Origin: a virus
Length of the DNA stretch: 64,000 bases
Reading direction: 5' to 3' (one strand)
Virus record (IMG/VR): IMGVR_UViG_3300035698_017111
Span: 82,773 to 146,772 of that record
Position numbers and translations under genes: made by a program
Notes under the pieces: model-generated
The model's input: the letters and a program-made list of their open reading frames with translations, nothing else
Database searches by the model: none
What the model was told of the DNA's origin: nothing
In this document: positions 1-41,490 of the stretch, in pieces
How positions within the stretch are numbered: position 1 is the first letter of the stretch
Layout of the letters: every line of letters begins with the position of its first letter

Positions 1-193
1 ATATAACCGAGACAATGGTTGTTCTAACAAAAGAAATAATATCTAGATTCTCATTGTCATAATCTGGAATCCAAACTTCATCACCTATATCGTAAATGGG
101 TTTTTCTCCAGATATCCGCATAATGCATTCCCTATTGATAAAAATTATAGGAGTGGTTGACTTCGGGTTTGTAACCTGACACCTAACGCTCAT
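1..193 (-). CDS. Hypothetical protein, 3' end runs off the window; start uncertain
   Basis: Open frame ...GYLEKKPIYDIGDEVWIPDYDNEN... to the window edge. The nearest in-frame ATG (191-193) has no clear SD and lies inside the structured element at 147-323. Confidence 0.4.
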   Translation of the reverse strand, partial: MSVRCQVTNPKSTTPIIFINRECIMRISGEKPIYDIGDEVWIPDYDNENLDIISFVRTTIVSVI

Positions 194-323
194 GGCGTGA
201 GGACGTTCTGGCCTTGGGTATGATCCTCACCAGATTTTTCAGCCCGTACTTCAGTTGTTACAATTTGAGGCTACCCTTTTCTCATACTCAGTACGATTAA
301 TTACGTACAGCAACCACTCCCAT
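147..323 (-). ncRNA. Putative structured RNA downstream of the release-factor gene
   Basis: 13-bp closing stem ATGGGAGTGGTTG/CAACCACTCCTAT (the G-U pair favours the minus strand). Inner stems TTGTAAC..CTGA/TCAG.GTTACAA and GTGAGGA/TCCTCAC. Confidence 0.45.
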
Positions 324-327
324 TTTC

Positions 328-1036
328 TTATACGACATTGTATATCTTGTCGAGATCTCCCCTAAGGAATTTCGCTAAAGAAAACTTACCTTCAGGACAC
401 TCAACACGATCTCTTCTATAGTTATAGTTTCTATTATAACCACCACGTTTTCCTTTATTTTGATTCTGAGAGTCATATTGTCCCTTGATGTCTGTGTGTT
501 TTTTCTTCTCACTAATCACAGACATTTTCTTGGATAGTCGTTCAAAAGCTATCTCTTTGTTTTTTCTCTGATCACGAGTATCACAACATTCAACGGTTAT
601 TCCGTCGTATTGCAAACGAACACCAGAGAGAGTTTTATTTCTTTTCTGTCCACCACAACCAGAATCCTTATAGTACGTAACCCTAACCTTTGATTTATCA
701 ATAGTGTTCTCTTCGACTCTATTCTTTTCGACAAGAACGACATTGATCAAAGAAGTTTGGACCCGGCCACGAGTCTCCGTTGGAGGGACTCTCTGGACAC
801 GGTGAACTCCAGGCTCTCTTCAGAACCAGTCTCTACATCCAGGTCCAGTTAATTCTAATTCTGTTTGTTTTGCGGTTTGAGACACAACACGGGCTTTAAT
901 GTTATGTTTTGCAGCATGCTTCAGGTAAGCCTTGAGTAGGTCCTGAGCAAATAGGCGGGAATCCTGACCTCCCTCACCAGGCAAGATTCGAAGATAGAGG
1001 GGGCTAAAGACAACTCCTTTTCGTTTGTGTTTTCAT
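328..1036 (-). CDS. prfA: Class I peptide chain release factor, RF1-type (PxT motif, GGQ), lacking domain 1; needs a +1 frameshift (1004-1009) and UGA readthrough (820-822); about 235 aa
   Basis: SD AGGAG + ATG at 1036 gives MKTQTKRSCL-TAG. The +1 frame continues SPLYLRILPGEGGQDSRLFAQDLLKAYLKHA...GCRDWF*REPGVHRVQRVPPTETRGRVQTS and runs into the tracked ORF 328-750 (SGCGGQKRNKT, RDQRKNK, RNYNY). These are all recognisable RF1 blocks. Confidence 0.88.
1003..1021 (-). promoter_or_regulatory. Programmed +1 ribosomal frameshift cassette (prfB-type, but with UAG)
   Basis: AAA AGG AGT TGT CTT TAG C versus E. coli prfB AGG GGG TAT CTT TGA C: internal SD, 3-nt spacer, CUU-U slippery site, stop codon followed by C. 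Confidence 0.85.
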
Positions 1037-1122
1037 AATTACTCTCCTTTTTAGTATTTCTCATATCAATACGATTTTCTTTATGCAAATACCTCGTTAC
1101 ATGATTTATCGTATACTACAGG

Positions 1123-1599
1123 ATGGAGAACGATATGACAAGTGAAAAATGGGAACCACTGAAAGATTTAGGACTCGATACTAATCCATGCCAAGAATGT
1201 GGTGGACGATGCTGTAAAGAAGGAGTCCATATAGAACAAGGGAAATTCGTTCCTGGTCTAACGGAGCAAAGCATTAGATGGGCAGAGTGTTGGGAAGGTG
1301 TTGAAACATATGTGTACTCTACTCAACTTGGAAAGCTTTGGGGAATCAAGATACCAAAACTACAATGTAAACATATTGGCCAAGACGGTGGTTGTTCAAT
1401 ACACGAGAACAAACCACCTGCCTGTAGGGAATACTTCGGCTTGAAGCCAACTGGACCAGATCCAGACTGTCTTTTGATTCGTGAACTATTACGACAAGAC
1501 AAAGTCCCATACGAAGATTGGGTAAAACAACTTTGGCCAAAAGGATTACCACTGACCAAATGGTTGAAAGAGTTAGGAATTGTTCTTATACCGAAATGA
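1123..1599 (+). CDS. YkgJ-like CxxCxxCC cysteine-cluster protein
   Basis: CQECGGRCC...CKHI...CSIHENKPPACREY; the ATG at 1135 after GGAG is the probable start. Confidence 0.75.
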   Translation: MENDMTSEKWEPLKDLGLDTNPCQECGGRCCKEGVHIEQGKFVPGLTEQSIRWAECWEGVETYVYSTQLGKLWGIKIPKLQCKHIGQDGGCSIHENKPPACREYFGLKPTGPDPDCLLIRELLRQDKVPYEDWVKQLWPKGLPLTKWLKELGIVLIPK

Positions 1600-3123: not shown

Positions 3124-3243
3124 GACTGGAACGGATAGTCATTACAGTGATAGCTCATTTTGGTAGAGCATCGGCCTTCAACGCCGGTTGTTATAGGTTC
3201 AATTCCTATTCACCCAAACAAACTGACTCTCAATAATCCAGTC
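3124..3243 (+). ncRNA. Closed-stem ncRNA 2 carrying a tRNA-like domain (3147-3213) with anticodon TCA
   Basis: Stems GACTGGA/TCCAGTC and AGTCA/TGACT; GAAC-N10-TACAG. D arm TAGCTCA..GGTAGAGC, anticodon arm TCGGC-CTTCAAC-GCCGG, T arm ATAGG-TTCAATT-CCTAT. The acceptor stem is only 4 bp (GTGA/TCAC). Confidence 0.8.
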
Positions 3244-3493: not shown

Positions 3494-3621
3494 TTGCTAG
3501 GAACGGCACGTTGATACAGACAAAATAGCTCAGCTGGTAGAGCTGTTGGTATTCTAACCAATAGGCGTAGGTTCAATTCCTACTCTTGTCACCTTTACTC
3601 AACTGGTAATCACCCTAGCAA
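3494..3621 (+). ncRNA. Closed-stem ncRNA 3 carrying a tRNA-like domain (3519-3591) with an 8-nt anticodon loop
   Basis: Stems TTGCTAGG/CCTAGCAA and GTTGA/TCAAC; GAAC-N10-TACAG. Acceptor GACAAAA/TCTTGTC, D arm TAGCTCAGCTGGTAGAGC, GTTGG-TATTCTAA-CCAAT, T arm GTAGG-TTCAATT-CCTAC. No encoded CCA. Confidence 0.8.
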
Positions 3622-41091: not shown

Positions 41092-41490
41092 GGGCTCGTA
41101 CTGGTTTCGACGGGAAGCAGAACGGGAAAAGCTGCAAGCCGAGCATGTCAGATCCATCTCGATAAACTGGTCTGTCAACAATAGCTGACGAAGCTATGCC
41201 AATCGCTGCCTAAGAGAACCTTAAGCAGTCGCCCTCTCTAAGTTCCGTCTGTAACGAAGAAAAGGGCGTCATCAAACAGACTCGTTCAGAGGTCTACTCC
41301 TGGGGTATCTGAACTAAAAAGCACAGGACCGCAATAACCGAATGGTAACGACAAAACGTCAGACGGCTGACGGTCGAATGAGTTGTTACAGCCATGGGGA
41401 GCGGTTACTGAAAGTGTAGCAGCCTAAGCTTGTAGACGCTTTTTCTAGACTCTTTTCGGACGGGGGTTTCGATACCCCCCGAGTCCACCA
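41092..41490 (+). ncRNA. ssrA: tmRNA; predicted tag (A)DEAMPIAA
   Basis: 5' GGGCTCG..TGGTTTCGAC and 3' GGGGGTTTCGATACCCCC-CGAGTCC-ACCA with a G3-U pair. Resume context ATAGCT-GAC; tag ORF at 41187-41213; TTGACA..TATGAT promoter upstream. Confidence 0.95.

Follow-up and report, generated by a model that had tools for sequence, protein, structure and literature searches.

An in-frame UGA as a candidate translational gate in short RF1-type release factor genes of a phage lineage

The release factor (RF) gene of a salt-lake phage, known from a 146,772-bp IMG/VR virus record estimated to be about 77% complete, is interrupted by an in-frame TGA. A full-text literature search found no publication that describes an in-frame UGA within the release factor gene of a phage. 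Among related phages the interruption is both conserved and mobile, the two halves of the gene are under purifying selection, no other gene is affected, and the product has an RF1-type fold and RF1-type motifs. The TGA is interpreted here as a selected translational gate of a short, domain-1-less RF1-type gene, the output of which would be set by competition between tryptophan insertion and RF2; the probability of this reading is put at roughly 0.6. The window, meaning the whole stretch of DNA that was analysed, is the final 64 kb of this single record, and all coordinates refer to it.

Organization of the release factor gene

The RF gene is encoded on the minus strand, with the following features.

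1113-1141, minus strand: promoter-like site TTGTCA-17-TAGTAT upstream of the RF gene, from a consensus scan only, with no function implied
1004-1036, minus strand: leader ORF MKTQTKRSCL in frame 0, 10 codons, with ATG at 1036-1034 and TAG at 1006-1004
1003-1019, minus strand: prfB-type +1 shift cassette, with AAGGAG at 1019-1014, spacer TTGT, CTT at 1009-1007, TAG at 1006-1004 and C at 1003
823-1005, minus strand: coding segment 1 in the +1 frame, 61 codons, comprising the GEGG tip of helix alpha-5 and the first part of RF domain 2
820-822, minus strand: the in-frame TGA (candidate gate), with A as its 3' base
812-827, minus strand: local 6-bp hairpin GGUUCU-GAAG-AGAGCC around the UGA, present in the minimum-energy fold and weakly recurrent in homologues
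328-819, minus strand: coding segment 2, 163 codons plus TAA, with PPT at 786-778, GGQ at 654-646, domains 3 and 4, and the TAA at 330-328

The leader ATG (1036-1034) is preceded by a ribosome binding site (RBS), AAGGAG, located 7 nt 5' of it. An earlier note on this DNA, made from the sequence alone, had claimed that a TGA at 820-822 interrupts the RF gene while leaving its flanks intact, and both parts of that claim are confirmed. The codon (822-820) lies in the RF frame between ...GCRDWF and REPGVHRVQRVPPTE, and the frame is kept on both sides. The Pfam families PF03462 (PCRF) and PF00472 (RF-1) match on both sides of the TGA: coding segment 1 covers PCRF positions 102-146, and coding segment 2 covers PCRF positions 169-194 together with the RF-1 domain. 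The proposed alignment with a lysine of RF1 also holds, as the codon corresponds to the Lys of F-K-Y-E-S-G in Thermus thermophilus RF1. The gene layout bears out the further proposal that no full-length product arises unless the ribosome shifts +1 at CUU-UAG-C and then also passes the UGA. Contigs from two salt-lake runs belonging to separate studies were found to cover positions 820-822 and the shift site with zero differences, the depth of these two runs being low (about 3-4x).

A split protein made by internal restart was considered and rejected. No in-frame start follows the TGA until 23 codons downstream, beyond the PPT loop; in addition, the break point differs between relatives, and some relatives are uninterrupted.

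A short RF1-type protein

Sequence comparison and modelling identify the predicted product as a short class-I release factor of the RF1 type without domain 1. That domain (about 100 residues) is absent, with the alignment beginning at about residue 110 of T. thermophilus RF1 and the ORF start located only 10 codons ahead of the GEGG segment. The clade of short factors to which the protein belongs spans 200-235 amino acids, the full-length factor of this phage having 235 residues. Its codon-reading loop, VQRVPPTETRGRVQTS, contains PPT, i.e. the PxT type of RF1, as opposed to the SPF of RF2. Around this loop the phage factor reads VQRVPPTE...GRVQTS, and the flanking context of the RF1 type is HRVQRVP...GRxHTS. 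The GGQ motif of the RF-1 domain (654-646) is invariant in a 28-sequence alignment. The best PDB sequence matches are to RF1 (6e-26), RF2 (4e-19) and PrfH (6e-5), and an AF2 model of the factor (pLDDT 87.9) has ribosome-bound RF1 as its top Foldseek matches (TM 0.89-0.90, E = 4e-19).

Distribution of the TGA among relatives

A protein search produced about 100 homologues, and many of the close ones are oddly short calls that start inside domain 2. The DNA of a close clade was compared across 23 loci with 47-58% identity (L004, L006, L007, L026-L042, L106 and L185-L187; L004 is the same contig as L029). Exactly one in-frame stop is present in the RF frame in 19 of the 23, and it is invariably TGA, never TAA or TAG; no additional frameshifts were found in any of the 23. 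Alignment of the homologues thus shows that a TGA is kept, at the same codon or at nearby or other codons. The main codon (F/V-stop-K/R-E) is TGA in nine distinct loci including this phage, and the remaining close-clade TGAs are 3, 4, 6, 24 or 45 codons upstream of it. Six alignment columns hold a TGA, all of them within the first ~60 codons and ahead of the HRxQR-PPT loop. The four relatives that have no in-frame TGA carry a genuine TGG (L027, L185 and L187) or CAA (L026) at the main codon. The W of one database protein, P0005, was discarded as independent evidence for Trp, since its source had translated the TGA with code 4.

A maximum-likelihood tree contains well-supported sister pairs whose members have the TGA at different codons, or in which only one member has it. 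This phage (TGA at -56) pairs with L029 (-62, with GGA at the main codon), and L033 (-80) groups with L039 and L106 (-60). In two further pairs one member has a TGA and the other does not: L036 (TGA) is sister to L027 (TGG), and L006 (TGA) is sister to L026 (CAA, no TGA). These pairs indicate that the TGA has been lost and re-created repeatedly.

For close pairs, dN/dS (Nei-Gojobori) is 0.00-0.12 upstream of the TGA and 0.08-0.15 downstream. Values of about 0.1 on either side imply that both halves are translated in this frame and are under purifying selection; the relaxed dN/dS that would mark pseudogenization was not found. The earlier note had left room for a plain nonsense mutation. That explanation is not upheld, as the stop is common to relatives, dN/dS is about 0.1 and the two sequencing runs agree. 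The TGA pattern and the dN/dS values together rule out a pseudogene and support a selected readthrough gate. The gated gene structure also explains why gene callers reduce these genes to ORFs with an "RF-1 domain only" (P0013-P0027).

The arrangement extends beyond the close clade. In a sister clade (~33% identity), which includes a complete 363-kb phage, all 19 of 19 loci have a TGA at the conserved Trp of RF1, found as G-W-K in Streptococcus mutans RF1 and R-W-R in Escherichia coli RF1. The distant locus L069 also has a single TGA, at a different codon, and a third clade has a +1 shift site, GGAG-TGT-CTT-TGA/TAG, in the same N-terminal segment. A search of viral contigs gave no match with a single RF protein as the query and distant clades only with an alignment as the query. 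Judging by these sequences, early recoding gates on short phage RF1-type genes appear to be a general theme. In the clade of this phage, a shift site in the leader is joined to a TGA that has changed position.

Codon use in this genome and in a relative

Tryptophan is encoded by TGG 570 times across about 165 ORFs, and an in-frame TGA occurs once, in the RF gene. The statement that UGA is a normal stop elsewhere in this genome proved correct: TGA closes 37 of the 165 ORFs, in 33 cases overlapping the following start. The 570 TGG codons and the 37 terminal TGAs, mostly overlapping the next start, indicate that the genome uses the standard code. The median distance from a terminal TGA to the next stop in its frame is 8 codons.

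All same-frame ORF pairs split by one stop were inspected in the 146.8-kb genome, and no other interrupted gene was found; the pairs other than the RF gene are neighboring genes, with a start codon and RBS right after the stop. In a related 120-kb contig, TGA ends 67 of 205 ORFs, and no further gene is interrupted. Global recoding was rejected after ORF coverage had been compared under code 11, a TGA-sense code and a TAG-sense code, and after one-stop ORF pairs had been checked, both in the genome and in the 120-kb relative. The hallmark of a code change, many genes with in-frame TGAs, is not seen here, where the RF gene stands alone.

RNA structure and codon context around the UGA

The earlier note had placed the UGA in a foldable multi-stem region. 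The hairpins that it named can be drawn, and the 6-bp UGA hairpin, the GAGUC/GACUC hairpin and the outer 9-bp stem are present in the minimum-energy fold; a functional multi-stem region is not supported. The 90-nt fold has a z-score of -1.44, with 19 of 200 shuffles equally stable, and the 201-nt context has a z-score of -1.18. RNAalifold detected no covariation in nine homologues that share the position of the TGA. Among them only the 6-bp UGA hairpin recurs, with a consensus of -1.5 kcal/mol and largely because of the codons Phe-stop-Lys/Arg-Glu; conservation is lacking for the outer stem and for both other hairpins, CUGGA/UCCAG and GAGUC/GACUC. Synonymous-site constraint is likewise not evident near the TGA (entropy 0.79 vs 0.77 in the rest of the gene), so that the 758-847 region yields neither signal. 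A hairpin enclosing the stop codon would in any case melt once the codon occupies the A site. No RNA element beyond codon context is supported.

The codon context itself is uniform. At 8 independent positions every gate TGA is followed by A or C and none by U or G; of the 37 terminal TGAs in this genome, 16 have U or G as the next base. A and C are weak fourth bases for termination in E. coli. With no stimulatory structure or constraint, the efficiency of readthrough would rest on codon context alone and would possibly be very low.

The +1 shift cassette and its combination with the gate

The Shine-Dalgarno (SD)-like sequence AAGGAG-TTGT-CTT-TAG-C at 1019-1003 has the geometry of a prfB shift site, with a spacer of 4 nt (canonically 3) and TAG, not TGA, as the stop. 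A cassette of the form GGAGG-N3-CTT/GTT-TAG/TGA, with a 3' C, occupies the corresponding position in 16 of the 21 distinct relatives, and is absent from L026, L032, L036/L041, L042 and L186. A C after the prfB UGA makes for a weak stop (PMC12421855). The two elements occur in several combinations: a TAG shift site with a TGA gate in seven distinct family members, TGA at both gates in six relatives, the TGA gate alone in four (L032, L036, L042 and L186), the shift alone in three (L027, L185 and L187), and neither in L026. In this distribution, the UGA gate is the more widespread of the two elements. Because the combinations vary among relatives, the AND logic of RF1 and RF2 seen by the earlier note would be one variant of a broader theme.

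The UCA tRNA-like element

In this genome ARAGORN and Rfam identified a total of two tRNA-like genes, each of which lies 2-2.5 kb away from the RF gene. One of these has a UCA anticodon.

3147-3216, plus strand: tRNA-like body with loop CU-UCA-AC, candidate UGA decoder (ARAGORN; Rfam tRNA, 51.9 bits)

The presence of a UCA loop near the sole UGA-containing gene is notable. The anticodon loop is a canonical 7 nt, with U33, UCA and A37. The Rfam match spans model positions 4-67 only, and the acceptor stem is 4 bp, with CCA directly after it. The element is embedded in a Y-RNA-like GAAC-N10-TACAG scaffold, the motifs of which were confirmed. Its E. coli matches consist of tRNA-Trp only, weakly (E = 8), and its phage matches are of mixed isotypes. 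No isotype could be assigned to the element, and Trp is outside the ten closest isotypes among 152 tRNAs. No PF00579 match to a tryptophanyl-tRNA synthetase (TrpRS) was found in the 77%-complete record. The Ro60-like gene has no homologue in any RF relative's locus, and a linkage of the RF gene with the Ro60-like module was rejected on these grounds.

The tRNA complements of relatives were also compared. The 120-kb relative has 7 tRNAs, none of them UCA or Trp, and the complete 363-kb phage of the sister clade has 44, including Trp(CCA) and two CUA but no UCA. Since relatives with the gate have no UCA tRNA, the family does not require a dedicated suppressor. A tRNA-Trp(CCA) with a 4-bp anticodon stem, a type of UGA reader (PMC13092985), was rejected as well, because in the phage tRNA-Trp genes found alongside gated RF genes (L028, G002 and G003) the predicted anticodon stem is 5 bp or longer.

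Proposed mechanism

In the proposed model, the ribosome would first slip +1 at SD-CUU-UAG-C, against RF1-type termination, and some 61 codons later an amino acid would be inserted at the UGA, against host RF2. The inserted residue would most likely be Trp, delivered by near-cognate tRNA-Trp(CCA). The small fraction of ribosomes passing both gates would yield the 235-residue factor, and translation that stops at one of the gates would leave a harmless peptide, 10 or about 71 residues long, that has neither the PPT loop nor GGQ. Output would be the product of two leak rates, rising when the termination capacity of the cell drops, and a potentially toxic extra release factor would thereby be held scarce until required. 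The early placement of the gate fits a failure product that is a short peptide and not a ribosome-binding fragment.

The two gates would differ in their logic. At the UAG, host RF1 and the phage factor itself would compete with the shift, which would make this step a true feedback loop. Self-feedback of the prfB kind would not apply at the UGA, because a factor of the RF1 type would be expected to release peptides at UAA and UAG and not at UGA. Control by RF2 competition is a tentative part of the model, as is its physiological purpose, and the model does not account for a benefit of linking an RF1-type factor to UGA decoding or RF2 activity. The gate is also dispensable, given the four relatives without any in-frame TGA.

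Insertion of Trp is suggested by the alternation of TGG with TGA, by the location of the sister-clade TGA at the conserved Trp of RF1 and by the near absence of TGG elsewhere in these RF genes. The residue is not fixed by the alignment, because the codons opposite two of the gate positions are for Cys (TGY) or Ser (TCA), one mutation away from TGA, and not for Trp.

Alternative explanations

Much of the evidence above would be shared by a fixed attenuator, in which the UGA divides expression by a large constant factor, with no meaningful response to RF2. The conservation would be the same, no stimulatory structure would be needed, the ungated relative L026 could be accommodated, and there is a reason to keep output low, as unregulated overexpression is reported to do strong harm in the case of RF2 and modest harm in that of RF1 (PMC12421855). 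This explanation is regarded as rather unlikely: a weak RBS or promoter is a simpler route to constant low output, the re-creation of the TGA at new codons, always in an A/C context, points to a UGA-specific property, and the companion shift cassette is a classic responsive device. The gate might instead be opened by a dedicated phage suppressor, if the UCA RNA at 3147-3216 were processed, charged and able to decode UGA, in which case it would act as a timer or code switch, as has been proposed for TGA-recoded phages. The canonical U33-UCA-A37 loop, the 51.9-bit tRNA score, the CCA after the stem, the distance of 2.3 kb to the sole UGA-containing gene and the weak tRNA-Trp match as the only one in E. 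coli are all compatible with this idea, which is nonetheless clearly unlikely in view of the 4-bp acceptor stem and the limited span of the Rfam match. The Y-RNA-like scaffold lies by a Ro60-like gene, a setting in which charging of tRNA mimics would be unexpected; the RNA is not closest to Trp tRNAs in the comparison with 152, no TrpRS was found, the Ro60-like module is missing from relatives' loci, gated relatives do without a UCA tRNA, and the phage's own 37 TGA stops would be suppressed too. A more elaborate and quite improbable version makes the two tRNA-like cargos of the Ro60-like/Y-RNA array the phage's keys to both gates. The UCA cargo would be released, CCA-matured and charged and would decode the UGA, and the cargo with an 8-nt loop, UAUUCUAA, would act at the UAG; if this were true, a viral RNP array would time phage release-factor production.

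The remaining explanations dispense with a gate or assign the UGA another meaning. A host that reads UGA as sense (code 4 or 25, without RF2) would make the TGA an ordinary codon, and related contigs do come from habitats rich in candidate phyla, the 120-kb relative being binned with a Saccharibacteria MAG; the median of 8 codons to the next stop would also make readthrough of terminal TGAs tolerable. This is very doubtful, as that same MAG encodes an SPF-type RF2 along with a PAT-type RF1, and the 570 TGG codons against one in-frame TGA, the 37 TGA-ended genes and the same pattern in the 120-kb relative speak for the standard code. It would, moreover, leave unexplained why the TGA is confined to the RF gene and reappears there. 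A plain nonsense mutation, pseudogene or assembly error could be suspected from the need for two non-standard events and the depth of about 3-4x, and is highly improbable given the agreement of two runs from separate studies, the TGA in 19 of 23 relatives, a dN/dS of about 0.1 and the lack of other lesions. Finally, selenocysteine insertion is brought to mind by the ARAGORN label "tRNA-SeC" on the UCA element and by a hairpin that can be drawn 7 nt past the UGA. It is scarcely credible: the label reflects the anticodon only, the element has neither the long variable arm nor the 8-bp acceptor stem, the downstream hairpin is not conserved and no conserved SECIS-like element was found, and the gate moves, the residues found opposite its main codon being Trp, Lys, Ser, Gln or Gly but never Cys. 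A selected gate, passed by Trp insertion in competition with RF2, is therefore preferred.

Comparison with known systems

Feedback by recoding in prfB is a textbook case. In a survey of 12,753 genomes, no TAG was found in bacterial prfB shift motifs and no programmed shift or other recoding was found in bacterial prfA (PMC12421855), so that neither an RF1 device of this kind nor a TAG shift site is known from that survey. The phage lineage described here would place an RF1-type factor under two serial recoding events, a UAG-based prfB-like switch and a UGA. In this phage both gates are present, the shift site with UAG and the TGA in a relocated position, and a UCA tRNA mimic is located nearby. 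With this lineage, release factors join the translation spare parts known from the tRNA arrays of large phages. If the gate responds to RF2 activity, it would be a natural sensor of the termination capacity of the cell, and, being compact and portable, could be built into expression switches whose output reports or requires stop-codon decoding.

A close parallel is prfB itself, where translation of an RF gene also depends on non-termination at an early stop, within a conserved cassette 10 codons in. The phage system differs in that its product is of the RF1 type and lacks domain 1, the shift stop is UAG and the spacer is 4 nt instead of 3; it also has a second, separate gate, a plain in-frame UGA needing readthrough, which prfB does not have. 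For that second gate, a likeness exists to the coat/A1 system of phage Q-beta, in which tRNA-Trp, a normal near-cognate tRNA, decodes a leaky UGA a few percent of the time, against RF2 and without genome-wide recoding. Readthrough in Q-beta, in contrast, adds a C-terminal extension and so makes a second protein, whereas the UGA of the phage RF gene lies inside one conserved domain, the termination product would be useless, and the gated gene encodes a termination factor.

In architecture the phage factor resembles PrfH (RF-H), which is also about 200-230 residues long and without domain 1. It is, however, a far weaker match to PrfH (6e-5, TM 0.70) than to RF1 (6e-26, TM 0.90), and keeps a canonical PxT-type loop along with GGQ. 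Finally, the TGA-recoded Jade phages possess a code-change module consisting of a suppressor tRNA(UCA), TrpRS and RF1; the module is itself written in the standard code, and late genes carry in-frame TGAs (Borges et al., 10.1101/2021.08.26.457843). An RF1-type factor and a UCA-anticodon RNA are likewise found together in the phage described here. The arrangement is nevertheless the reverse of that in the Jade phages: no TrpRS was found in the record, the UCA RNA has a truncated acceptor stem, and it is the RF gene, and only the RF gene, that carries the TGA.

Sister and third clades of short RF1-type genes

The short RF1-type release factor genes fall into further clades beyond that of the window. 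The sister clade includes L009/L054, from the complete 363-kb phage G002, as well as L008, L010 and L043-L060. In these genes, the TGA is located exactly at the conserved Trp of RF1, and the leader shift site is absent. Besides its sister-clade RF gene, G002 encodes two tRNA(CUA) genes, and the presence of amber suppressors and an RF1-type factor in one phage looks like a contradiction. The third clade (L046, L066, L071 and L073) features a +1 shift site, GGAG-TGT-CTT-TGA (or TAG), in mid-gene, within the interval between the GEGG and HRxQR segments, and the PPT loop and GGQ are encoded in the +1 frame past this site.

TGA as a stop codon

Across the whole genome record, 37 ORFs end in TGA, and in 33 of these the end of the ORF runs into the following gene's start codon (ATGA type). 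Judging from this sequence arrangement, TGA stops in the window's phage serve almost only translational coupling.

RNA genes and genomic neighborhood

Three further RNA features were detected in the window:
145-325, minus strand, 181-nt folding stretch with a 13-bp closing stem
3519-3593, plus strand, second tRNA-like gene, scoring 59.7 bits against the tRNA family of Rfam
41092-41490, plus strand, phage-encoded tmRNA (Rfam, 141 bits)

The 181-nt stretch adjoins the RF stop codon on its 3' side with no intervening terminator, and its fold has a z-score of -3.0, with 2 of 200 shuffles equally stable. An Rfam search with this stretch returned no match; it may represent an ncRNA carried on the same transcript as the release factor.

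The second tRNA-like gene has a near-complete acceptor stem and an anticodon loop, UAUUCUAA, of 8 nt (or 6 nt), for which ARAGORN could not assign an anticodon. Both CUA and UCUA are present in this loop, and neither matches the UAG-C of the leader shift site.

In relatives (L028, L026, L029, L006, L007, L036 and L042), phage tRNA arrays contain or adjoin the RF genes. Two neighboring genes were located:
L028 1871-1946, tRNA-Trp(CCA), approximately 90 nt downstream of the gated (TGA-interrupted) RF gene
L007 1919-3094, Cas12f1-like/TnpB gene (Pfam PF07282, precomputed table)
The latter, found in this one relative, follows the gated RF gene at a distance of approximately 1.2 kb.

The tmRNA has an unusual predicted tag peptide, DEAMPIAA, and, alongside the RF, it is a further phage-borne part for translation rescue or termination.
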